Positions 19,069-41,625 are shown, numbered from the stretch's first letter. The stretch: DNA of 45,991 nt from Clostridia bacterium (GCA_045533905.1 JAZSIR010000010.1:1-45991), one strand, 5' to 3'. Made by a program: numbers and translations. The notes: generated by a model not told the origin, from the letters alone.

Positions 19069-19128
19069 AAAAACACTGCATACCTGTCCTTCTTCCCGCA
19101 TATTAGTAGAAGCAGAAGGAGGATGTAT

Positions 19129-19692
19129 ATGAAATTCCGAGACAGGCTCTTTTGCTTTTGTATGCCCTGCGCTGTTTTTGCCGGCCTTTTGCTCGGCGCT
19201 GCGTCCGCCTGCCGTGCGGAAACGGGAGCGCTCTTTGTGGCGGCGGCGGAAAGCTTTGCTTCTCCCGCACTCGCCTCGGAAAGTTTTTTGCATGCACTAT
19301 GGCAAAACGGTGGACTTGCCGTGCTTTTAATTCTCTTGGGGACTTCCCTTCTCGGCGGCCTTCCGATGGCTTTTCTTTTAGGCCTTCGCGCCTATGCCGC
19401 AGGCTTTGCCGTTTCCGCGCTCGTATCCGCCTACGGGGGACGCGGCTTTCTCGCGGCTGTGTGCGGCATTTTCCCGCACCATCTTTTCTACATTCCTTTT
19501 CTGTGTCTTCTGGCGATACACAGCGTGCGCTTTGCCGTGCGCCTTTCTGATAAGAAAAATTCTGCACCCGCACGCCTTTCCTCGTATCTTCTTTCTTCCC
19601 TTTTGCTGACGCTTCCCATCTTTTTGGGGTGTCTTGTGGAAGGCTATATTTCCGCGCCGCTCCTCCGGGCTGTTTTGGGCGCATATGTGTAA
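19129..19692 (+). CDS. spoIIM: Stage II sporulation protein M
   Basis: Multi-TM protein with GF....L...G..G, PHH.FYIP, EGYISAP; position upstream of xerD; candidate sporulation-sigma promoter GCATA-16-CATATTAG at 19078-19106. Confidence 0.75.
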   Translation: MKFRDRLFCFCMPCAVFAGLLLGAASACRAETGALFVAAAESFASPALASESFLHALWQNGGLAVLLILLGTSLLGGLPMAFLLGLRAYAAGFAVSALVSAYGGRGFLAAVCGIFPHHLFYIPFLCLLAIHSVRFAVRLSDKKNSAPARLSSYLLSSLLLTLPIFLGCLVEGYISAPLLRAVLGAYV

Positions 19693-19705
19693 AGGAGAGC
19701 TCCCT

Positions 19706-20569
19706 TTGAAGCAGTTTACCACATTTCTGAAAACAAAAAAGAAACTTTCGGAAGCTTCCATCGCGTCCTACGTGCGCGATGTGGGGCTTTTTTCTGCCTT
19801 TTTGCAAAAGGACCTTTCGCGGGCTACGGAAAAGGATGTTCGCAGTTTTGTTCTGCATATGCAAAGTGAAGGACGGGAGACGGCTACTATTTTGCGTTCT
19901 CTTTCCTCCCTGCACACGTATTTTTCTTTTCTCGTAACCAAGGGCCACTGCAAAGCTGACCCCACCCGAAATATCCGGCGCCCCGCCTACACCCGCAAGC
20001 TCCCCGTAATTTTAACCGAGGAGGAAGCGGTGCGGCTTTTAGAAGCGCCCAAAGGAGACACGCCGCTTGCGCTTCGCGACCGTGCACTCCTTGAACTTTT
20101 ATACGCGACCGGCATCACGGTTTCGGAGCTTCTCTCCCTGAACGTGGAAAATATCAACATCCGAAGTCGTACACTCCTGCTTCGTTCTCCCGCGCACACC
20201 CGCGTGGTCCCCTTTGGACGCCCGTGTGCGACGGCACTTTCCGCCTATATGAAAAACGCCCGCCCCCTTCTTTTCAAAGGGAGCGGTGCGGTTGCGCTTT
20301 TCGTAAGTTCGGGTGGCACCCGCATTACGCGGCAGGGTGTGTGGAAGCTGCTCAAAAAATATAAGGAAGCCGCGGCGATTGATAAGGATGTAACGCCGCA
20401 GATGCTCCGCCATTCCTTTGCAGCACATCTTCTCGAACACGGGGCCGATACAGCCTCCCTGCAGGAGCTTATGGGCTTTACCGATGCCGGTTCCCTTGCC
20501 ATCTATACGAAAATGCAGGAAAACAAAATTCTGGATGTGTACGGAAAAACACACCCCCGCGCAAACTAA
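19706..20569 (+). CDS. xerD: XerD-like tyrosine recombinase with degenerate active site
   Basis: SAM-like N-domain, RDRALLELLYATG, LRHSFA.HLL..GAD, HPRA end; TTG start after AAGGAG; several catalytic residues substituted. Confidence 0.8.
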   Translation: MKQFTTFLKTKKKLSEASIASYVRDVGLFSAFLQKDLSRATEKDVRSFVLHMQSEGRETATILRSLSSLHTYFSFLVTKGHCKADPTRNIRRPAYTRKLPVILTEEEAVRLLEAPKGDTPLALRDRALLELLYATGITVSELLSLNVENINIRSRTLLLRSPAHTRVVPFGRPCATALSAYMKNARPLLFKGSGAVALFVSSGGTRITRQGVWKLLKKYKEAAAIDKDVTPQMLRHSFAAHLLEHGADTASLQELMGFTDAGSLAIYTKMQENKILDVYGKTHPRAN

Positions 20570-20649
20570 AAACATATTTTGCAGCCTTTCTGCATAGGAT
20601 TCTACCAAAAACGGCAGATATTTCTGTCGGAGATGGAGGTCCGCTTTCC

Positions 20650-21789
20650 TTGAAAAAATATTTTTGTATTTTTCTGATTCTGCTTTTTTGCCCCGTGCTC
20701 CCTGCCAAAGCCGAGGTGCCTATGCTTTCCGTACAAGCGAAAGCCGCACTTCTGATGGAGGCGGAAACGGGGCGAATTTTGTTTGAAGAGAATATCCACG
20801 AAGCCTTCCCGCCTGCTTCCGTGACCAAAATTATGACGATGCTGCTTACGATGGAAGCCATCGAAAAAGGGCAGATTACCTTTGACACGATGGTGACGGC
20901 AAGCGAAAATGCAAAGCGGATGGGCGGCTCTACGATTTTCCTCGACACAGGCGAGAAGATGCGCGTATATGACCTTCTGAAGGGCATCGCAGTTGCTTCC
21001 GGAAATGATGCATGCGTGGCGATTGCGGAGCATCTTGCAGGGAGCGAGGCGGAATTTGTGCGCCGGATGAACGAGCGTGCCCGCGAGCTGGGTATGGAAA
21101 ATACGAACTTTGTAAACTGCAACGGGCTCGATACCGAGGGGCACGCGATGAGTGCCTACGATATTGCGCTGATGAGCCGCGCTCTTATCCGGCACGAGAA
21201 AATTTTTGAATTTACGACCATCTGGACAGACAGTCTCCGCGACGGATCTTTTGACCTTGCCAACACGAATAAGCTGATTCGGTTTTATGACGGCGCGAAC
21301 GGTCTGAAAACGGGGTCTACGGACGATGCTCTCTACTGCCTCTCCGCCACCGCAAAGCGCGGGGATATGCAGCTTATTGCCGTCATTATGGGCGCCCCCT
21401 CCTCTACGGAGCGCTTCGCGGGGGCGCGCACACTTCTCGACTACGGCTTTGCCGGCTTTGAAATTGCGAAAGGGCCGGATACCGGAACGCCCGTATATAC
21501 GGCAGAGGTTTCGCTCGGTGCTGAAAGCACGGTGCCCCTTTGCCTTGCCACTCCCTTTTCTGCTCTTTTGGAAAAAGGAAAAAGCGGAGAGGTAGAAACG
21601 CGGTTTGAAGTACCCGAACCGCTGACAGCGCCGCTTTCCGCGGGCGATGCGGCCGGCCGCGCACTCTTTTATCTTGGCGACGAATGCCTCGGGGAGGTGC
21701 CGCTTACCGTTTCGGTCGATATGCCGAAAAAGACGCTCGGGCAAATTCTGACGATGCTTCTCTCCCGGTGGTGCGGCTCGAAAATGTGA
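20650..21789 (+). CDS. dacF: D-alanyl-D-alanine carboxypeptidase (DacF-like)
   Basis: Signal peptide, PASVTK, SGNDA, GLKTG; candidate sigma-F-like promoter GCATA-16-GGCAGATATT at 20592-20622. Confidence 0.85.
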   Translation: MKKYFCIFLILLFCPVLPAKAEVPMLSVQAKAALLMEAETGRILFEENIHEAFPPASVTKIMTMLLTMEAIEKGQITFDTMVTASENAKRMGGSTIFLDTGEKMRVYDLLKGIAVASGNDACVAIAEHLAGSEAEFVRRMNERARELGMENTNFVNCNGLDTEGHAMSAYDIALMSRALIRHEKIFEFTTIWTDSLRDGSFDLANTNKLIRFYDGANGLKTGSTDDALYCLSATAKRGDMQLIAVIMGAPSSTERFAGARTLLDYGFAGFEIAKGPDTGTPVYTAEVSLGAESTVPLCLATPFSALLEKGKSGEVETRFEVPEPLTAPLSAGDAAGRALFYLGDECLGEVPLTVSVDMPKKTLGQILTMLLSRWCGSKM

Positions 21790-21875: not shown

Positions 21876-22796
21876 ATGGGAAACGAGACACATAAAACAA
21901 GTATCGGGGGGCAGGCACTGATTGAAGGCGTTATGATGCGCGGGCCGCGCACAACCGCCATGGCCGTCCGCAATCCCGAGGGTGAAATTATCATCGAAAA
22001 ATGGCCCACGCCCGGCACGGAGCGCGCAAAATTCTTTAAGCTTCCCTTCATCCGCGGCATTTTCAATATGGCCGATTCCCTGCGCTTTGGCTACAAGTGC
22101 CTGATGCGCTCGGCCGAGATTGCGGGGCTTGAGGAGGAAGAAAAAAAGGACGAAAAGAAGGAAGCCTTCCTTATGAGTCTTCTGATGGTTGTGAGTACCG
22201 TTTTGGCCGTGCTTTTATCCGTGGGACTTTTTCTGTATCTGCCTGCGTTTTTATTCCGTCTCCTTGCAGATGCCGTACCTGTATTTGACAATAGCGTTTT
22301 CCGCGCCGTTTTTGAAGGCGTGTTCCGCATCATTCTGTTTGTGGGCTATATGGCCGCAATGCTCCTTATGAAGGACATCCGCCGCACCTTTATGTACCAC
22401 GGTGCCGAGCATAAAACGATTTACTGCTATGAAGAAGGCCTTCCGCTGACGGTGGAAAATGTACGGAAAATGCGCCGTTTTCATCCGCGTTGCGGCACTT
22501 CGTTTATGATTTTGGTACTGCTTGTCGGTATTATCATTTCTATGTTCATCCGCGTGGACGCCCCGCTTCTTCGTACGCTTATTAAGCTTTTGACGCTTCC
22601 GATTGTGGTGGGCGTAGGGTATGAGCTTATCAAATTTGCCGGCAGACACGACAATATGGTAACGCGTATCATCTCCGCGCCCGGCGTATGGCTTCAGCAT
22701 CTGACCACCATCGAGCCGGATGACGGGCAGATCGAATGTGCCATTGCCGCAATGGAAGAAACGCTTACGGGTAACCGGGAGGATGACGCATGGTAA
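21876..22796 (+). CDS. DUF1385 (YqhQ-like) membrane protein
   Basis: IGGQALIEGVMM, FMYHGAEHK, HPRCGTSF, LQHLTT.EP. Confidence 0.88.
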   Translation: MGNETHKTSIGGQALIEGVMMRGPRTTAMAVRNPEGEIIIEKWPTPGTERAKFFKLPFIRGIFNMADSLRFGYKCLMRSAEIAGLEEEEKKDEKKEAFLMSLLMVVSTVLAVLLSVGLFLYLPAFLFRLLADAVPVFDNSVFRAVFEGVFRIILFVGYMAAMLLMKDIRRTFMYHGAEHKTIYCYEEGLPLTVENVRKMRRFHPRCGTSFMILVLLVGIIISMFIRVDAPLLRTLIKLLTLPIVVGVGYELIKFAGRHDNMVTRIISAPGVWLQHLTTIEPDDGQIECAIAAMEETLTGNREDDAW

Positions 22797-23602
22797 TCCG
22801 CTCTCTTCTCGCTTCTGTCCCTATTCCGCGCCTCGATGCCGAAATTCTCCTCGCGCACGTTTTAGGCATCCCGCGCGAAAAGCTTCTCTTTATGTATAAT
22901 ACGCCCGTCGCACCTTCCTGTGCGGCGGCATTTTCTATGCTTTCCGAAAAGCGGCTCGCCGGCTGCCCTGTTGCATATCTCTGCGGCGAAAAGGAGTTTT
23001 ATTCCCTTCCCTTTTATGTAAACGAGCACACGCTCATCCCGCGGCCCGATACGGAAACGCTTGTGGAGTGGGCCATTCCGTATGCCAAGGAGGCACGTGT
23101 TCTTGACATTTGCACCGGCAGCGGCTGCATCGGGATTACCGTGGCAAAAGAAGGCGGCGCAGAAAGCCTTACGCTTCTCGATATTTCGGAAAAGGCGCTC
23201 GCCGTGGCCGAAAAGAATGCGGCGCGGCACGGCGTGGCGGCAACGCTACTTCTGTGTGATATTTTAAAGGACTCCATCGAAGGGGAATTTGACCTTATTT
23301 TGTCGAATCCCCCGTATATTGAAACGGATGTCATCCCCGCGCTTTCGGGCGATGTGCGCGACTTTGAGCCGCATCTTGCGCTTGACGGCGGCGATGACGG
23401 GCTTCTTTTCTACCCTGTGATTATCGAAAAAGCAGCCGCACTTCTCCCTCCCGGCGGCCGGCTCGGCCTTGAAATCGGCTACTCGCAGGGCGAAGCCGTT
23501 TCCAAAATGCTCGCTTCCCGCTTCGAAGAGGTTGCCGTTCTTCCGGACCTTGCGGGGCATGCGCGCGCTGTGGTAGGGCGGAAAAAGGATCTGAAAATTT
23601 GA
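22790..23602 (+). CDS. prmC: Release factor glutamine methyltransferase
   Basis: LIPRPDTE, LDICTGSG, SNPPY, EP..ALDGG, LEIG..Q. Confidence 0.93.
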   Translation: MVIRSLLASVPIPRLDAEILLAHVLGIPREKLLFMYNTPVAPSCAAAFSMLSEKRLAGCPVAYLCGEKEFYSLPFYVNEHTLIPRPDTETLVEWAIPYAKEARVLDICTGSGCIGITVAKEGGAESLTLLDISEKALAVAEKNAARHGVAATLLLCDILKDSIEGEFDLILSNPPYIETDVIPALSGDVRDFEPHLALDGGDDGLLFYPVIIEKAAALLPPGGRLGLEIGYSQGEAVSKMLASRFEEVAVLPDLAGHARAVVGRKKDLKI

Positions 23603-23627
23603 CAAAGGGGAAAAGATATGATATACT
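23599..23627 (+). promoter_or_regulatory. Sigma-A promoter for OLE RNA (TTGACA-17-TGnTATACT)
   Basis: TTGACA 23599-23604 (contains the prmC TGA stop), TG 23619-23620, TATACT 23622-23627; predicted TSS ~23634. Confidence 0.75.
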
Positions 23628-23636
23628 GCACAGTAA

Positions 23637-24233
23637 GGTGGTGCAGTATCCTAGTCAGGATGCCGATTCCCAGGACGGGCCTAAAAATCCGTAGAAGGGC
23701 ATATCGATGAAGTTCCTGGTGTTGGCTTTCGATGCCAGTCGGGGGTCGATGCTGGGGGTTAAGGTTTAGGGGCGAGTCGCAATGGCATGCGATGTGGACC
23801 CCTTTTCCGTGGAGACCTACGTGCGTGCTTTCCGCCCGCTCGCCTTTGGCGACGGAACGAAGTACGGCGTGGGAGTAAACCTGCCATGCGGTGCCAGGCG
23901 GCGCTGTGGGCAGAGTAGCCTGCCTTGCGTGGATATGAAGGATAACGGTTCAGGCTCCGCTTTTGTCGGCCAACAAAACGGAGACATTGCTGTTTGAAAT
24001 CCTATCTGCAAAAAAGGCTAAGAATCGGTTTGACTGTTGAGGAAATCTCCTAGGCTGTTCGAGGTAGAGGGATACGGAGGATTGCAGTGCGGACTAAGTG
24101 GCAATCCGCTTTGCATCCCAAAAGATGCAGCTTCTGTTTAATCGGAAACGGCCCGGAGCGGCGACGCGCGGGCACGGAAGTGGGAAATCCAACGCGGACC
24201 TATGCCGCAAAATTTACTCCGTATTCTGCCACC
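23637..24233 (+). ncRNA. ole: OLE RNA (ornate, large, extremophilic RNA), ~600 nt
   Basis: Ordered blocks recalled from the OLE consensus: GGTGCAGTAT.CTAGTCAGG, GGGCCTAAAAATCC, ATCGATGAAGTTCCTGGTG, GCAATGGCATGCGA, GTAAACCTGC, GTAGCCTGCCTTG, GGCTAAGAA, ACTGTTGAGGAAA.CTCCTAG, GAGGATTGCAGTGCGGACT.AGTGGCAAT, ACCTATGCCG; 5' GGTGG pairs with 3' CCACC; directly upstream of oapA-dxs-tlyA. Confidence 0.9.
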
Positions 24234-24259
24234 CAATTTTTTTATAAGGATGACTTTTT

Positions 24260-24859
24260 GTGAAAGACGATATTCCGAAACAAAAACGCAAAAAAATAAA
24301 AGTAAAGAGCAATCATACGTTGAATCGGAAGGTGAGCGTGGGCTGGGTTCTCACGACGGTGCTTCTGACCTTTTTTCTTTCTGTGGCAATTACCGTGTTC
24401 ACATCTTCCCTCCTCGGGGATGTGGCGCTTTCGATTGCCGTTTTCATTTTATTGTCCATTGTCCTTTTAGGTATACTTTTTGATATTCTGGGAATTGCGG
24501 TCGCTACTGCGGCCGAGGCGCCGTTTCACGCGATGGCCTCAAACCGCGTCAAGGGTGCCGTGGATGCGATCCGTCTTATCCGAAACGCCGAGAAAGTTTC
24601 GAATTTCTGTAACGACGTTGTCGGCGATATCTGCGGTATCGTGAGCGGTGCTACGGGCACGTTCATTGCCACCGCGCTCATCACGGACTTTTCCCTTCCC
24701 TCGTTCTTTACTACGCTTGTGGTAACGGGCACAGTCTCCGCCATCACGGTGGGTGGCAAGGCGCTCGGTAAAACGCTCGCCATCAACCAGTGCAATCAGA
24801 TTGTATTTGCCATCGGCAAACTCATTTCTATATTTCACATAAAGAAAAGCAGGAAATAG
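24260..24859 (+). CDS. oapA: OLE-associated membrane protein A (DUF21/CNNM-like)
   Basis: FDILGIAV.TA.EAPFHAMAS, NFCNDVVGDICGIVSG (DxxxD and GxxxG), TVGGKALGK; immediately downstream of OLE RNA. Confidence 0.85.
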   Translation: MKDDIPKQKRKKIKVKSNHTLNRKVSVGWVLTTVLLTFFLSVAITVFTSSLLGDVALSIAVFILLSIVLLGILFDILGIAVATAAEAPFHAMASNRVKGAVDAIRLIRNAEKVSNFCNDVVGDICGIVSGATGTFIATALITDFSLPSFFTTLVVTGTVSAITVGGKALGKTLAINQCNQIVFAIGKLISIFHIKKSRK

Positions 24860-24860
24860 T

Positions 24861-26687
24861 ATGTACAAACTTCTGGAAACGGTGAACACACCCGCGGATC
24901 TTCTCGGCCTTTCCTACGAAGAGCTCGATGTGCTCAGCCGCGAACTCCGCGCTTTCCTAATTGAAAACATCCCGAAAACGGGCGGGCATTTTGCCTCGAA
25001 CCTCGGTGTTGTGGAGCTGACGCTCGCTCTGCACCGCTCTTTTTCCGTGCCGAAAGATAAGCTCATATGGGATGTGGGGCACCAAAGCTATGTGCACAAA
25101 ATTCTGACCGGCAGAAGAGAGGCATTTTCCACGCTTCGGCAGTTTGGCGGTCTTTCCGGCTTCCCGAAAACAGAGGAAAGCCCCTATGATGCTTTCAATA
25201 CCGGCCACTCCTCCACCTCCGTTTCTGCCGCACTCGGCCTTGCCTGCGCCAGAGATTTACAGGGGGGCGAAGGCGAAACGATTGCCGTTATCGGCGATGC
25301 CGCCTTCGGCAGCGGTCTTTCGATGGAAGCGCTCAACCATATCGCACATTGCCACCACAAGGTGATTGTGGTTCTCAATGACAATCAGATGTCTATCGGC
25401 AATGTTGTGGGCGGCTTTTCGGAATATCTGAACAAAATCCGCACCCGTTCTTCATACTATACGATAAAGCGTGAAACGAGTGACGTTCTGCACCGCATTC
25501 CCCTCTTGGGGAAGCCCTCCGTAAAAGCACTTCAGAAAATAAAAACATTCCTCAAATACTGCATAACGCCCGGCGTTGTTTTTGAAAAACTCGGCTGTAA
25601 GTATCTCGGCCCGTGTGACGGGCACAACATCCGCCAGCTTTGCGATACATTTGAGGAAGCTAAGAAAATTTCAGGGTCCGTAATTATACACGTTCTGACC
25701 AAAAAAGGAAAAGGGTACGCACCCGCTGAAGAAAACCCCGCAGCATACCACGCCGTTTCCCCGAAGAAATCGGCCGGAGAAAGCTGCAGTGTCCGTTTCG
25801 GGAAAACGCTTCTTTCCCTTGCGGCAGAAAACGAAAAAATTGTGGCGATTTCGCCTTCGATGCCCGAAGCCTCGGGGCTTCCCCCCTTTGTGGAAAAGTT
25901 CCCCGTCCGCTTTTTTGACACAGGCATTGCCGAGGCGCACGCCGCCACGCTCGCCGCAGGGCTTGCCAGGGGCGGGATGGTGCCCGTGCTTTCCATTTAT
26001 TCTTCCTTTCTCCAAAGAGCGTACGACTCGGTTGTGCACGACATTGCCCTTTCGAATCTGCACGTGGTGCTTTCGATAGACCGCGCAGGTGTTGTAGGCA
26101 ATGACGGGGAAACCCATCAGGGGCTTTTTGACCTCTCGTTCCTCTCGCACATTCCGAATATGGCAATTGTAGCGCCGGCAGATCTCGATTCCCTCTCGGA
26201 AATGCTCCGATATGCTACAATGGAGCACCGGGGCCCGATTGCCGTTCGTTTCCCGCGCGGCACGCTTCCCCCGCTCGCGCTTCCCCCATTTGTGTTTGGG
26301 AAAGCCGCCACGCTCCGCGAGGGCAAAGATATCACGATTGCGGCGCTTGGCCGTATGGTACATATTGCGTTTGCCGCTTCGGATCTTCTTATGGAAAAAG
26401 GCATATCGGCGGAGGTTATCGATATCCGCACCGCAAAGCCGCTTGATCTCGCTTCTCTTCGTGCCTCGCTTCTCAAAACGGGTACGCTTCTTACAGTGGA
26501 GGATAACACGGCGCCCGGCGGTATCGGTGAGAAAATTGCAGCCGCACTTTCAGGCGAAGGGCGCGTTGTGCCATGTGCATTCCCCGATGCATTTATCCGC
26601 CACGGCGATGTGCGGGAGCTTCTGGCGCTTTACGAGCTGGATACCGAAGGCATCGCAAAACGGGCAGAAAGGACTTTGAAGGCATGA
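24861..26687 (+). CDS. dxs: 1-deoxy-D-xylulose-5-phosphate synthase
   Basis: GGHFASNLG, WDVGHQSY.HK, GHSSTS, LNDN, GIAE.HA, FLQRAYD, DRAG..G.DG.THQG. Confidence 0.95.
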   Translation: MYKLLETVNTPADLLGLSYEELDVLSRELRAFLIENIPKTGGHFASNLGVVELTLALHRSFSVPKDKLIWDVGHQSYVHKILTGRREAFSTLRQFGGLSGFPKTEESPYDAFNTGHSSTSVSAALGLACARDLQGGEGETIAVIGDAAFGSGLSMEALNHIAHCHHKVIVVLNDNQMSIGNVVGGFSEYLNKIRTRSSYYTIKRETSDVLHRIPLLGKPSVKALQKIKTFLKYCITPGVVFEKLGCKYLGPCDGHNIRQLCDTFEEAKKISGSVIIHVLTKKGKGYAPAEENPAAYHAVSPKKSAGESCSVRFGKTLLSLAAENEKIVAISPSMPEASGLPPFVEKFPVRFFDTGIAEAHAATLAAGLARGGMVPVLSIYSSFLQRAYDSVVHDIALSNLHVVLSIDRAGVVGNDGETHQGLFDLSFLSHIPNMAIVAPADLDSLSEMLRYATMEHRGPIAVRFPRGTLPPLALPPFVFGKAATLREGKDITIAALGRMVHIAFAASDLLMEKGISAEVIDIRTAKPLDLASLRASLLKTGTLLTVEDNTAPGGIGEKIAAALSGEGRVVPCAFPDAFIRHGDVRELLALYELDTEGIAKRAERTLKA

Positions 26688-27478
26688 AAACGCGTCTTGA
26701 CATCTATCTCTGCGAAAAAGGACTCGTTCCCACCCGCGAAAAGGCAAAAGCCGTGATTATGGCGGGTGAAGTATATGTAAATGACCAAAAAGCGGACAAA
26801 GCGGGACAAACCGTTTCTGAAGAGGATACGGTAGAGGTCCGCGCCGATTCCCTTCGGTATGTAAGCCGCGGCGGGCTCAAACTCGAAAAGGCTATGGCCG
26901 TTTTTCCCATTTCTCTGGAAGGTGCCGTCTGTATGGATATCGGCGCTTCCACGGGCGGTTTTACGGACTGTATGCTTCAAAACGGCGCCCGGAAGGTGTA
27001 CGCTATCGACGTCGGATACGGCCAGCTGGCCTGGTCCCTTCGCACGGATGACCGCGTTGTAAATCTTGAGCGCACAAACATCCGCTATGTCACGGAAAAC
27101 GAAGTGCCCGATACGATTGATTTTGCAAGCGTGGATGTTTCCTTCATTTCGCTTCGCCTTGTGCTTCCCGTGGCGTTCTCCCGCCTGCGCGACGGCGGCG
27201 AGATGGTTTGCCTTGTAAAGCCGCAGTTTGAAGCCGGCCGTGAAAAGGTTGGAAAAGGCGGCGTGGTACGGGATCCCGAGACGCACCGCGAAGTGATTGC
27301 CGCCGTAATTTCCTACGCGGAAGAGGCGGGCTTTTCCGTACAGAATCTCTCCTTCTCGCCCGTAAAAGGGCCGAAGGGAAATATTGAATACCTGCTGCAT
27401 ATTACCAAAACCGATGCCGAAAGTGCACCGGTGGATATCCCGAAAACGGTGGAAGCGGCACATCTGGAAGCAAAGTAA
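26684..27478 (+). CDS. tlyA: TlyA-family rRNA methyltransferase
   Basis: RLD S4 domain, YVSRGGLKL, DIGASTGGFTD, DVSFISL, KPQFEAG, GNIEY; ATGA overlap with dxs. Confidence 0.93.
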   Translation: MKTRLDIYLCEKGLVPTREKAKAVIMAGEVYVNDQKADKAGQTVSEEDTVEVRADSLRYVSRGGLKLEKAMAVFPISLEGAVCMDIGASTGGFTDCMLQNGARKVYAIDVGYGQLAWSLRTDDRVVNLERTNIRYVTENEVPDTIDFASVDVSFISLRLVLPVAFSRLRDGGEMVCLVKPQFEAGREKVGKGGVVRDPETHREVIAAVISYAEEAGFSVQNLSFSPVKGPKGNIEYLLHITKTDAESAPVDIPKTVEAAHLEAK

Positions 27479-27483
27479 AATAG

Positions 27484-27514
27484 AAAAGGAGCTGTAAAAC
27501 TTACAGCTCCTTTT
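27484..27514. terminator. Bidirectional intrinsic terminator ending the ole-oapA-dxs-tlyA unit
   Basis: AAAAGGAGCTGTAA-AAC-TTACAGCTCCTTTT. Confidence 0.8.
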
Positions 27515-27517
27515 GGT

Positions 27518-27970
27518 TTATATCTCTTTCGGAAGAACCGTCCGTTCATCTTTTACATTTTTCAGAACGAAGTGTGTTCTCGTGGCCGAAACCCCCTCAA
27601 GGCTCTTGATGTGCCGGTGAATACTTTCGAGGCTCTCCGACGTATCGGTCACAATCTTCAGGATGAAATCGAAATCCCCTGTCAGATAGTCGCAGGAAAT
27701 GATGTTCTCATTCTCGCGCACCATCTCCGTGAAGGAATCGTAAAAGCGCGGGTGCTCAAGGCTTACCTCCATCAGCGCCGTCATATCATTTCCCATCTGC
27801 TTCTGGTCCAGAATCACGGTGTAACCCTCAATGAGACCGCACTTTTCCATCTTGCGGATTCTTTCCAAAACGGCAGAAACGGAAAGATTGATTTCTTCCC
27901 CTATGGCCGAGGCCTTCTGGCGTGCATTTTCGCGAAGGCGGTGTAAGATTTTATAATCAATTGCATCCAT
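27518..27970 (-). CDS. Lrp/AsnC-family transcriptional regulator
   Basis: MDAIDYKIL..LRENAR, LS.SAV.ERI.KME..G.I.GY, TGDFDFILK; promoter TTGACA-17-TAAAAT at 28031-28003 (-). Confidence 0.9.
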   Translation of the reverse strand: MDAIDYKILHRLRENARQKASAIGEEINLSVSAVLERIRKMEKCGLIEGYTVILDQKQMGNDMTALMEVSLEHPRFYDSFTEMVRENENIISCDYLTGDFDFILKIVTDTSESLESIHRHIKSLEGVSATRTHFVLKNVKDERTVLPKEI

Positions 27971-28114
27971 ATGCCCTTCTCCTTTTTCCTTTGTTACTTT
28001 CCATTTTACGAAATTTTCGGCATATTGTCAAGTGTATTTTTCGCGGCAAAACATTGCTTTTTCGGCGACAGCGTGGTAAAATACAGGTAGATACGGCAGA
28101 AAGGAGCAAAAAAT

Positions 28115-28573
28115 ATGCCTTTTACCATATTTGCAAAAATTCTTTCTTACATCTTTGTTCTCATTATTTACCTTTTTATCATTAAGATTATCCAGATGGT
28201 CACACAGGACATTGAGGTGATGCGCCGCCGCAAAACGAGCGACATTGCGGCACACACCTACATAAAGCTTTTAAATCTCCGCCACACGCTCGACTTTGCG
28301 GCAGAGGAAAACTATCCGCTTCTGAAGGATTCCGTTTTAGGCAGAAGCCCGAAATGTGATATTCCGATTGACGACCCCTTCCTCTCCCAAAAGCATGCCG
28401 CCTTTCTGTGGCGCGACGGTGTTTGCTATCTGCAGGATATGGGCAGCACAAACGGGACAAGCCTCAACGGCGAGAAGGTTTCGGGCGACCCTGTGGAACT
28501 ACTAAACGGCGACCGCCTCGATATCGGCCAGCTCTCCTTCATTTTTGTGACGGAGGAGGGGCACCATGCGTAA
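28115..28573 (+). CDS. Membrane-anchored FHA-domain protein
   Basis: N-terminal TM; LGRS, SQKHA, DMGSTNGT, NGD. Confidence 0.88.
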   Translation: MPFTIFAKILSYIFVLIIYLFIIKIIQMVTQDIEVMRRRKTSDIAAHTYIKLLNLRHTLDFAAEENYPLLKDSVLGRSPKCDIPIDDPFLSQKHAAFLWRDGVCYLQDMGSTNGTSLNGEKVSGDPVELLNGDRLDIGQLSFIFVTEEGHHA

Positions 28574-29861
28574 TCTCAAAAAGCTTTCACCGCTTCTTTT
28601 AGTGCTTCTTGTAAATTTTCTGGGGTTCGGGATTCTCTTTTTATCCGATGCCCGGCCGGATAAGGTGGCCGCGTACTATGCGCTCGCGCTCCTCGGCATT
28701 ATTCTGATTTCCTATATTGTCATCGTTTTTTTCTCCCGCGGAGACGAATACCTTTTCCTTATCGTTTCGATGCTTCTTTCTGTGGGCATCATTATGCTCT
28801 TTCGCCTCGATACGGCGCAGGCTGTGCGCCAGATTACCTGGTTCTATGTCGGTATGGCCGGCTTTTGCCTCGTGTACGGCGTATACCGCCTTGTTCCCTT
28901 CTGGCACCGCCTTCTGCCGCTTTATACCCTTGTGGCCTTTCTCCTTTTTGTGGCCACGCTTCTTTTCGGCACGTACAGCGGTGGCGCAAAAAACTGGCTT
29001 TTCGGCTTTCAGCCGTCCGAGCCGATTAAAATTCTGTACATTTTAGGGCTCTCTGCCCTTTTCACGGCGCCGTATGATACCTCGCATGAAAAGACACTCG
29101 CCTTTTTCGAAAAGCGCCTGCAGTTTCTCAAAAAGCCTGTCCGCTTTGTGCTTGCGCACTTTTCCTCGCCGGCAAAGCGGCCGCTTCTGATTATGGCCTA
29201 TGCCTATATGCATCTCGGTTTTCTGGTGCTGCAGAGAGAATGGGGCTCGGCCGTCTTGTATTTTGCCATCTATTTTGTGATGCAGTTTGTGTTCGGCGTA
29301 AAATACCGCTATCTCTTTCTGAATCTGTTTCTCGCCGCGGGCGGTGGTCTTTTAGGATACCGCTTCCTTTCGCATATCCGCGAGCGCGTGGCTATCTGGC
29401 AGGACCCCTTTGCCGACAAAAGCGGCCTTGGGTATCAGATTGTGCAGTCGCTGTACGCCATGGCCGCCGGCGGCTTTGCAGGTGCCGGCATCGGGCAGGG
29501 CTTTCCCGAATTTGTGCCGGTTGTAAAAAGCGACTTTATTTTTGCCGCTATCTATGAAGAGCTCGGGATGCTCGGGGCGGTGGCCGTTGTATTTCTTTTC
29601 TTTTTGCTTGTATACCGCGGCATCAAGATTTCCCTTATGGTCAGAACACCTTTTCATAAGGCGGTAACCCTCGGCATAAGCCTTATGTTCGGCTTCCAGG
29701 CGCTCATTATTATCGGCGGCGTCACGAAGATGATTCCGCTGACGGGTATCACGCTCCCCTTTATGAGTGCGGGCGGCTCCAGCCTTGCCACTTCCTTTGC
29801 TTCGCTTGCCATATTGCAGGCCATCTCTGCGAAAACGGAGGATTTAAGCGATGACATTTAA
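28566..29861 (+). CDS. SEDS family FtsW/RodA glycosyltransferase
   Basis: GAKNW, FQPSE, YQI.QS, SDFIFA...EELG, IPLTGITLPF.S.GGSS. Confidence 0.9.
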   Translation: MRNLKKLSPLLLVLLVNFLGFGILFLSDARPDKVAAYYALALLGIILISYIVIVFFSRGDEYLFLIVSMLLSVGIIMLFRLDTAQAVRQITWFYVGMAGFCLVYGVYRLVPFWHRLLPLYTLVAFLLFVATLLFGTYSGGAKNWLFGFQPSEPIKILYILGLSALFTAPYDTSHEKTLAFFEKRLQFLKKPVRFVLAHFSSPAKRPLLIMAYAYMHLGFLVLQREWGSAVLYFAIYFVMQFVFGVKYRYLFLNLFLAAGGGLLGYRFLSHIRERVAIWQDPFADKSGLGYQIVQSLYAMAAGGFAGAGIGQGFPEFVPVVKSDFIFAAIYEELGMLGAVAVVFLFFLLVYRGIKISLMVRTPFHKAVTLGISLMFGFQALIIIGGVTKMIPLTGITLPFMSAGGSSLATSFASLAILQAISAKTEDLSDDI

Positions 29862-31230
29862 CAAAAAAATTATCGTGGTTTTAGCCCTGATGCTCACGCT
29901 CTTCTGCGGCGTAACGCTGTACTTTTCCTATTTCCAGATTTTCAAAAGCCCCGCGCTTTCGGGCCACAGTGAAAATCCGCGCACCGTGGCGCAGGAAATG
30001 CGCAAAAAGCGCGGCTCGGTGTATGACCGTGATGGTGAGGTTCTCGCCAAAAGCGAAATGACGGCGGACGGGCAAAAGCGCGTATACCCTTTTAACCGCC
30101 TGTATTCCCAGCTGATCGGTTTTTCCTCGAATCGCTACGGGCGTACACTGCTTGAGGACACCTATAACCGCTATCTTCTCGGCGGCGGGGCGGACAATGC
30201 CCTTACAGAGGCGCTTTTCGGCTATGCAGGTGAAAAAGGTGCCGATCTGCACCTTACCGTAGAGCACGACCTGCAGCTTCTGGCCGCCAATCTGCTCGGC
30301 GACCGCCGCGGTAGTGTAGTAGCGATGGATCCCGCCTCGGGCGAGATTCTCTGTATGGTGTCAAAGCCATGGTTTGATGCCAATACCATTTCCCAAAATT
30401 ACGAAACACTTTCCGAGGAAGCGGGCAACTTTTTCCCGCGTGCAACGGACTGGAACTATGTGCCCGGTTCCGTTTTCAAAATCATCACGGCCGCGTCCGC
30501 CCTGGAAAACGGCCTTGAAAATACGGAATATGAAGATACGGGCACATTCACGGTCGACGGCTATGATATCCATAACTACGGCGAGAAGGTATACGGACTT
30601 TTAGATATGGACACGGCCTTCTCAAAATCCTCCAACACCTATTTTGCCTCTCTGGCCACCACGCTCGGGGAAAAGGCACTTCGGGAGACGGCGAAAAACT
30701 TTTATTTCGGCCGCGAAATTCCGTTTGACATCCCCGTCCGGAAAAGCACCACGCTCACCGGTCATCCCACGGCAACGGATGTGGCGGCCGTCGGCTACGG
30801 GCAGGGTGATACGGAGGTAACGCCGCTGCATATGGCAATGATTACTTCCGCCATCGCAAATGACGGCGTGATGATGGCGCCGTACGTTGTAAAAAGCGCA
30901 GAAGCGGACGGAAGTATCCTATATAAAAAGGAAAGCCGTATTCTGAACCGCGCCGTTTCGGTCACAACGGCAAGGCGCATTGCCGATATGATGGAAAAAT
31001 GCGCATCGGAGGGAACGGCCGCGGGAGTAGCCATCCCAGACATCACTGTCTGCGCCAAGACCGGTACGGCAGAGGTCGGCGAAGGGCAGAAGGACCACGC
31101 CTGGTTTGTAGCCTATGCCCCGCGGGAAAATCCCGAAATTGCTGTTTCGATTGTCCTCGAAAATGCGGGCACAACCGGTTCTGCCTGTGCCTATATGGCC
31201 AAAAGCCTTATTTCCTCCTATTTGCAATGA
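29851..31230 (+). CDS. Class B penicillin-binding transpeptidase (PbpA-like)
   Basis: RGSVYDR, PGSVFK (SxxK), SSN, KTGTAE. Confidence 0.9.
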   Translation: MTFNKKIIVVLALMLTLFCGVTLYFSYFQIFKSPALSGHSENPRTVAQEMRKKRGSVYDRDGEVLAKSEMTADGQKRVYPFNRLYSQLIGFSSNRYGRTLLEDTYNRYLLGGGADNALTEALFGYAGEKGADLHLTVEHDLQLLAANLLGDRRGSVVAMDPASGEILCMVSKPWFDANTISQNYETLSEEAGNFFPRATDWNYVPGSVFKIITAASALENGLENTEYEDTGTFTVDGYDIHNYGEKVYGLLDMDTAFSKSSNTYFASLATTLGEKALRETAKNFYFGREIPFDIPVRKSTTLTGHPTATDVAAVGYGQGDTEVTPLHMAMITSAIANDGVMMAPYVVKSAEADGSILYKKESRILNRAVSVTTARRIADMMEKCASEGTAAGVAIPDITVCAKTGTAEVGEGQKDHAWFVAYAPRENPEIAVSIVLENAGTTGSACAYMAKSLISSYLQ

Positions 31231-41468: not shown

Positions 41469-41543
41469 TGGTGACCCCTACGAGAATCGAACTCGTGTTA
41501 CCGCCGTGAAAGGGCGATGTCTTAACCGCTTGACCAAGGGGCC
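41469..41543 (-). tRNA. tRNA-Glu (TTC)
   Basis: GGCCCCTTGGTCAAGCGGTTAAGAC...CTTTCAC...GTTCGATT...GGGGTCACCA. Confidence 0.96.
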
Positions 41544-41548
41544 GCATA

Positions 41549-41625
41549 TGGTAGCGGCGAGTGGGCTCGAACCACCGACCTAACGGGTATGAACCGTTTG
41601 CTCTAGCCAACTGAGCTACACCGCC
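41549..41625 (-). tRNA. tRNA-Met (CAT), elongator type
   Basis: GGCGGTGTAGCTCAG...GGTTCATACCC...GTTCGAG...GCCGCTACCA; G1-based acceptor like the Bacillus elongator tRNA-Met. Confidence 0.93.

Follow-up and report, generated by a model that had tools for sequence, protein, structure and literature searches.

Between the stop codon of prmC (23602) and the next start codon (24260) in a 45,991-nt stretch of DNA from a Clostridia bacterium (GCA_045533905.1 JAZSIR010000010.1:1-45991; the window) lie 657 bp that look empty, and the question is what they contain. The sequence-only reading had placed OLE RNA in this gap, as a member of a known family and not a new class, followed by the gene for its protein partner OapA. 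Its gap coordinates were confirmed, and a search with the Rfam covariance model of OLE (RF01071) bore out the call: the match at 23622-24248 covered model positions 1-616 of 616 with 457.5 bits (E = 3e-131; gathering cut-off 50 bits). The only other Rfam matches in the window were two tRNAs. It is near certain that the gap is OLE RNA with oapA, a known family catalogued as RF01071, and the locus is an ordinary member with one quirk, a shortened OapB-docking hairpin.

The pairing of the two ends noticed earlier, GGTGG (23637-23641) with CCACC (24229-24233), was found to close the minimum free energy structure. The RNA as a whole has 55% GC, and its fold stability gave z = -3.5, with none of 100 shuffles as stable. 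We surveyed 41 genomes of the order, comprising family f1 (the window's genome and 21 others; hereafter the family), sister family f3 (18) and f2 (1). OLE matches were obtained in the window's genome and in 20 of the 21 others of the family, the intact ones scoring 422-489 bits, and the Rfam search gave no match in any of the 18 f3 genomes or in the single f2 genome. Twenty of the 21 matches were aligned, the fragmentary one from G021 being left out. A structure of 156 pairs in 25 helices was taken from RNAalifold consensus columns and completed manually with P13 and part of P2; the Rfam model gives no helix names, and helices were named from their order and from loop sequences in papers. In this structure 97.4% of cells pair, and two-sided changes occurred in 55 of the 156 pairs; shuffles gave 28.1 +/- 3.0 and slid controls 13-26, a test that favours the structure since it was derived from the same alignment. 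All 12 pairs of the long-range stem P3/P3.1 were standard in the window; a stem of this length has been proposed to cross the membrane (PMC12265935). Short open reading frames of 71 aa (at 23782), 64 aa (23817) and 58 aa (24087) lie in the gap; they were rejected as coding because many of the indels in the family alignment are not multiples of three nt. Some insertions were genus-specific: the P8 loop is longer by about 16 nt in G013 and G020 (A1 columns 284-306), and the small hairpin before P12 by about 20 nt in G017 (A1 columns 469-497).

The 199-aa product of the downstream gene is OapA, as had been proposed. We identified it as such because it carries the DxxxD motif, gives a CorB-type structural match as published for OapA, and has OLE upstream in 76 of 80 loci. 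The motif is formed by D119 and D123 (codons 24614-24628) within NDVVGD, picked out earlier and here placed at residues 118-123. Both aspartates were invariant in 91/91 homologues, aligned from the best 120 of 6191 found. For the best 80 of 590 homologue loci, the upstream OLE was counted within 400 nt of the gene. oapA was present in 21/21 OLE-positive genomes and intact in all 22 genomes carrying it. PMC11332333 describes DxxxD as a hallmark of OapA that CNNM domains lack, and reports for OapA likewise a weak CNNM match, with CorB 7M1U as the top structural match of the H. halodurans protein.

Here, the Pfam scan of the 199 aa gave one match, to CNNM (PF01595, E = 0.0015, below cut-off), with no CBS or CorC_HlyC domain, and no NCBIfam family was assigned. 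The predicted model was all-helical, with a predicted local distance difference test score (pLDDT) of 81. Its top fold match was CorB 7m1u (Z 11.7, root-mean-square deviation (rmsd) 2.6, 131 aligned), followed by CorC 7cfg (Z 10.7, rmsd 2.5, 120 aligned); unrelated helical bundles scored Z 10.0 and lower, a thin margin. In Foldseek, CorB took ranks 1-4 with E-values of 6e-3 or weaker, and there were no matches at E <=0.001. Close homologues are annotated 'CorB' or 'hypothetical'. An in-frame TGA in oapA of G016, considered as recoding or a broken gene, proved to be the normal terminal stop. Three oapA homologues (L095, L112 and L158) had about 3 kb of upstream DNA in which the family profile matched no OLE, and at a fourth (L118) the nearest OLE match ended 812 nt upstream; two of these four loci come from 'Bacilli' metagenome-assembled genomes and possibly carry a diverged variant-2 OLE.

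The distribution of OLE was compared with that of the exporter MpfA, a protein of CNNM-CBS-CorC architecture. Strong CNNM matches were found in 0/21 OLE-positive genomes, nine of which have weak matches falling on oapA itself, and in 19/19 genomes with neither OLE nor oapA. The carriers were all 18 f3 genomes, G011 and G022, and the architecture was confirmed in the 3 of 32 strong matches that were checked. No CNNM family match was obtained in a search of the window's genome (95.5% complete). G011 is the sole genome of the family without an OLE or oapA match, and no trace of either was seen before its dxs, which is preceded (~110 bp) by a PfkB kinase gene and a promoter-like stretch (G011:C465:1-2077, L162). 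Its MpfA-type CNNM-CBS-CorC gene lies on contig C365 (L160:135-1493, - strand). From these sequences, it is probable that G011 lost ole-oapA, with MpfA in place. In G022, the Rfam search gave no OLE, and the contig opens with what appear to be the last 25 nt of OLE, followed by oapA-dxs-tlyA (C216:1-700, L039); OLE there was probably cut by the contig end rather than absent, so that G022 would hold both OLE/oapA and MpfA. An anticorrelation of OLE and MpfA has been published for Bacillota generally (PMC11332333), and the exchange inside one order appears to repeat it at close range. This supports the published idea of the particle standing in for a Mg2+ exporter.

The real lineage-specific change, missed by the sequence-only reading, is a trimmed P13. 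In H. halodurans, P13 is the primary site of OapB, which requires there both a GNRA tetraloop and a bulge of one nt, and the GCGA loop of P14.1 serves as a weak secondary site (PMC7936274). The corresponding G-GNRA-C tip occurred in 0/20 family sequences, compared with 50 of 51 parsed outside loci. The survey drew on the best 80 homologue loci, 77 of them with an OLE match; 53 were parsed, including two f1 duplicates, and 24/77 were not. Two of the 20 family P13s carry a GAAA loop without the bulged tip. From anchor to anchor, P13 measured 30-36 nt in the family and 39-41 in most outside loci, a shortening of 4-10 nt. The trimmed stem still covaries, with two-sided changes in 5/5 pairs. P13s enlarged by insertions were also seen in two Oscillospiraceae loci, where about 40 nt is normal: that of L088 is 83 nt long and lacks the G-GNRA-C tip, and that of L090 is 58 nt long with an extra hairpin.

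The loss of the tip raises the matter of what OapB does in this family. The sequence-only reading had named oapB and oapC as genes to look for, and the window's genome carries both: oapB is flanked by map and infA (7k9b match, E = 4.6e-10), and ybxF/oapC, for which this genome only was checked, by rpoC and rpsL (E = 8e-14). oapB was matched in 20/22 genomes of the family and 15/18 of f3. Equivalents of G19, G42 and H57 were kept in all 30 OapBs retrieved, including those of the OLE-less f3, with the numbering offset inferred from the alignment. R20, by contrast, was kept in 21/21 from f1 and f2 and in 1/9 from f3; the R49 position is Asn in the window's genome. GRD and TN..[IVL]R/K motifs were present in all 20 family proteins examined and in 0/9 from OLE-less f3, and at matched marker distance OapB identity was 50% in the family and 34% in f3. 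This stronger conservation fits continued OLE binding, which may occur at another site. Such a scheme, in which the P13 docking tip was dropped, OapB shifted to the GNRA loop of P14.1 or uses its alpha-3 surface for binding, and ole-oapA was swapped for MpfA in G011, seems to us doubtful. G011, without OLE, keeps the same OapB motifs; G19, G42 and H57 are shared with f3; and the comparison is one contrast between two clades. OapB also has further roles besides OLE (PMC11332333). A literature search, with most subscription papers outside its reach, returned no paper whose subject is an OLE of full length apart from a trimmed P13, and this silence is no evidence that such RNAs are unreported.

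The P4 loop is dimer bridge B1 in cryo-electron microscopy (PMC12286853), the P5.1 and P6.1 loops are inter-chain kissing loops (PMC12265935), and loop L9.3 is the intermolecular kissing bridge B3 of the OLE dimer (PMC12286853). All of these motifs (L4, L5.1/L6.1 and L9.3) are intact here, so that dimerisation would be predicted from the published structures. Two GC-rich segments had been taken for lineage-specific variable arms, and the description held for one of them. Segment 23818-23870, in the P7 arm, has 64% GC and a mean majority of 0.75 (0.69 in its distal part) in the family, and the distal part measures 27 nt against 13 in the Rfam model. The other, 23935-23995, has 48% GC, with its GGCC loop region conserved at 0.96; variation is confined to the letters of its stem, where 7/9 pairs show two-sided changes. 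This segment is likely P9, a core element rather than a lineage-specific arm. P7, P8 and P9 all align to the model at full length.

The 5' end of the RNA was examined for signals of transcription. A near-consensus promoter had been proposed just before it, and the site TTGACA-17-TATACT with an extended -10 TG (11/12 matches) was indeed found, the 5' G of OLE sitting 10 nt past it. It was the joint best of eight such sites in 22000-30000, where 5.5 were expected, and as a single site it could be chance. An equivalent site (at least 9/12), however, ends 4-15 nt before P1 in 18/19 family loci, against a background of 94/3800 random upstream positions (2.5%). The upstream genes vary between genera, yet the site is kept. 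In the window, the prmC stop codon overlaps the -35 box; prmC precedes ole in only 2/10 wider loci with ole, and is outside the OLE/oapA system. The start of ole is predicted near 23634-23637.

Downstream, the oapA start codon lies 27 nt beyond the 3' end of P1, and the order was the same in every family locus fetched. The order oapA-dxs-tlyA was present in 11/11 wider loci, with ole in front in all 10 reaching far enough. A terminator-like hairpin follows tlyA at 27484-27514. Because the genes abut or overlap and this hairpin lies behind them, ole-oapA-dxs-tlyA is likely one operon from its own promoter, and dxs is likely co-transcribed with oapA. RNA contigs from relatives with short P13 (80% likeness) ended at 24231 (X4) and, in a different study, at 24233 (X5); contig X6, probably DNA, ran on to 24385, and X7 gave nothing. 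These ends are a weak hint of a discrete OLE 3' end at P1. High read depth over OLE sums the OLEs of many organisms and cannot rank genes, and the lack of reads over oapA is no evidence either way.

We consider it fairly probable that the ole-oapA-dxs-tlyA operon yields an RNA that dimerises and binds OapA, and that the membrane particle so formed would stand in for MpfA in keeping Mg2+/Mn2+ balanced under stress. The functional steps are carried over from other species onto an RNA family, an oapA identity, a gene order and a conserved promoter motif observed here. Transcription would begin at about 23634-23637, and the mature 3' end would fall near 24233. The RNA would dimerise through L4, L5.1/L6.1 and L9.3, as in the published structures. 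OapA, CNNM-like without CBS/CorC domains, would anchor it at the membrane, and the RNA with OapC and bS21 would supply the regulation that CBS/CorC domains give MpfA, both steps following work in H. halodurans. Since the P13 tip is missing, OapB probably no longer occupies its usual site, and the particle, like published variants, is likely to work without binding OapB tightly.

Several observations weigh against this reading. The H. halodurans and Clostridium papers behind the mechanism call the biochemical function of OLE unresolved and ion transport by OapA unproven, and Mn2+ fails to rescue the cold or ethanol phenotypes (PMC10898510); because of the latter, metal balance would not be the whole of OLE function. 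A Z score of 11.7 is within the chance range for helical bundles, the best Foldseek E-value is only 6e-3, and neither the protein nor its 91-sequence profile matched any PDB sequence. The comparison with H. halodurans OapA was made by described features. On the genomic side, G011 is 7% contaminated and fragmented, with MpfA on a 2.8-kb contig; the tree supports the family at 100 but the nodes nesting G011 at only 75 and 43. G022 carries both oapA and MpfA, and the OLE/MpfA pattern amounts to about two independent events, since kin share traits. A search of sequencing runs gave no run of the strain (best word share 0.10).

The particle might instead be a general stress-signalling scaffold ('bTOR'), in which the RNA changes shape and binds or sequesters bS21 and OapC, with OapA mainly a membrane anchor and no ion conduit. 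The rpsU (bS21) and oapC genes are present in the window's genome, P4-P6, with the OapC/bS21 sites, is among the best conserved parts of the family alignment (0.91-0.96), and loss of bS21 mimics loss of ole under cold and ethanol (PMC12054373), the phenotypes that Mn2+ leaves unrescued (PMC10898510). Taken alone, however, a scaffold leaves unexplained the clean exchange with MpfA in the order as well as the CNNM-like fold and invariant aspartates, and OapC and bS21 are widespread without OLE. We hold this account to be possible though rather unlikely; it is compatible with the metal-controlling particle and implies the same OLE/OapA identity. That OLE is a ribozyme with accessory proteins, for example a c-di-AMP (cyclic di-AMP) synthase (PMC11332333), seems very improbable. 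The size of the RNA and its many invariant unpaired positions in the family are in keeping with it, and the authors argue that RNAs so large and conserved are usually catalysts; however, no reaction has been shown, and their paper itself terms the proposal highly speculative (PMC11332333). The missing P13 tip, together with the apparent loss of the cassette in one family member, could also mark a relic decaying in a 1.57 Mb genome, with early loss of function. The full-model score, the retention of OLE in the 20 other family genomes, the compensatory changes throughout (including all five trimmed-P13 pairs), the intact oapA in every carrier, and the presence of family-type OLE contigs with short P13 in gut RNA libraries make this scarcely credible, and the conservation data appear to have largely refuted it.

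The locus can be placed among described systems. Like full-length OLE of H. halodurans and Clostridium acetobutylicum (RF01071), it has all 616 positions in ~600 nt, P1 closure, the 12-bp P3/P3.1, all three dimer-bridge motifs and full-length P7-P9, with oapA directly downstream, then dxs and tlyA, in the genome of a spore-former (spo0A). Compared with H. halodurans-type OLE, P13 is shorter and lacks the bulge and G-GNRA-C tip, a common but not universal OLE feature, and there is a conserved promoter of its own, whereas H. halodurans ole is reported inside one polycistronic cluster (PMC12265935). OLEs that have lost the P13 site were described before as 'variant 1' (Fernando and Breaker 2024, PMC11332333); there the loss goes with short P7-P9 and OapB loss, which is not so here. 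According to that report, variant 1 lacks the OapB-site nucleotides at the P13 end and occurs in small-genome uncultured Clostridia, both as here. Its P7, P8 and P9, however, are shorter, whereas these are full length in the window, with P7 longer than the model, and its hosts are largely without OapB and OapC, whereas both genes are present here. The variant 1 bit-score class (310-390) uses the authors' own model and is not comparable with the Rfam score of 457.5.

The protein matched described OapA in its ~200 aa, its position directly downstream of ole, DxxxD, basic patches, weak CNNM match and CorB 7M1U; no difference was found, the likeness being by description and not by alignment to the H. 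halodurans sequence. With MpfA/CorB/CNNM exporters it shares the fold of the transmembrane domain and, given the genome exchange, a likely overlapping role. It differs from them in lacking CBS/CorC_HlyC, in having DxxxD, absent from CNNM domains according to PMC11332333, and in an extra N-terminal helix outside the range 53-192 aligned to the CorB/CNNM fold. With 2,822 OLEs of Bacillota already in a 2024 catalogue (PMC11332333), the locus adds little biology. It has annotation value, in that a functional RNA of 600 nt would otherwise be missed or mislabelled along with its partner, and a P13-trimmed, otherwise full-length OLE with its own OapB bears on whether OapB binding is needed or relocated. 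If true, a relocated OapB would be a natural uncoupling experiment, and the equivalence of OLE particle and MpfA would be testable between near relatives (G011).

Table 1. Features of the ole-oapA locus and its neighbours (window coordinates)
Feature	Position	Strand	Basis or remark
prmC, release factor methyltransferase	22790..23602	+	TIGR03534 270.7 bits, above cut-off; upstream neighbour
Putative sigma-A-type promoter: TTGACA (23599-23604), 17 nt, TG, TATACT (23622-23627)	23599..23627	+	Sequence
OLE RNA, 597 nt between both strands of closing helix P1	23637..24233	+	RF01071 full model
P3/P3.1 long-range stem, 5' strand (4 + 8 bp with 24022-24033)	23655..23669	+	Consensus pairing
P4 A-rich loop	23680..23688	+	Motif identical in 20/20 family sequences
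P5.1 loop (23731-23740) and P6.1 loop (23780-23789), mutually complementary	23731..23789	+	Both motifs in 20/20
P7 arm (name by helix order)	23818..23875	+	Rfam model helix; variable in family
P9 arm with self-complementary GGCC loop L9.3 at 23965-23974	23922..24018	+	GGCC loop in 20/20
Trimmed P13: 6-bp stem, CCAAAA loop, no bulge, no G-GNRA-C tip	24112..24129	+	Rfam alignment, survey
P14.1 hairpin, GCGA tetraloop	24158..24167	+	GNRA loop in 20/20 family sequences
T-run of 7 (24237-24243) after P1 and AAGGA ribosome-binding-like site (24246-24250) for oapA	24237..24250	+	Sequence
oapA, 199-aa membrane protein: basic N-terminus, CNNM-like helical fold, DxxxD	24260..24859	+	Profile, model, homologues
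dxs, DXP synthase	24861..26687	+	TIGR00204 687 bits; starts 1 nt after oapA stop
tlyA-family rRNA methyltransferase	26684..27478	+	TIGR00478 278 bits; overlaps dxs stop

The surroundings of the locus offered some minor observations. The stretch 27484-27514 is a perfect 14-bp inverted repeat, terminator-like on both strands; across it, tlyA is faced by a convergent gene for an Lrp/AsnC regulator (27518-27970, - strand). xseA-xseB-ispA lie on another contig (C3) of the window's genome, where the gene behind them is not ole but, to judge by its sequence, probably a flavodoxin-like one (G000:C3:46211-49873, L165); the ispA-ole junction of other lineages is broken in this genome. Upstream of DUF1385-prmC, the window carries an ordinary sporulation-associated block at 19123-21789, with spoIIM, an xerD-type recombinase gene and a D-Ala-D-Ala carboxypeptidase gene. 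The two tRNA genes stand in tandem at 41472-41625 on the - strand.

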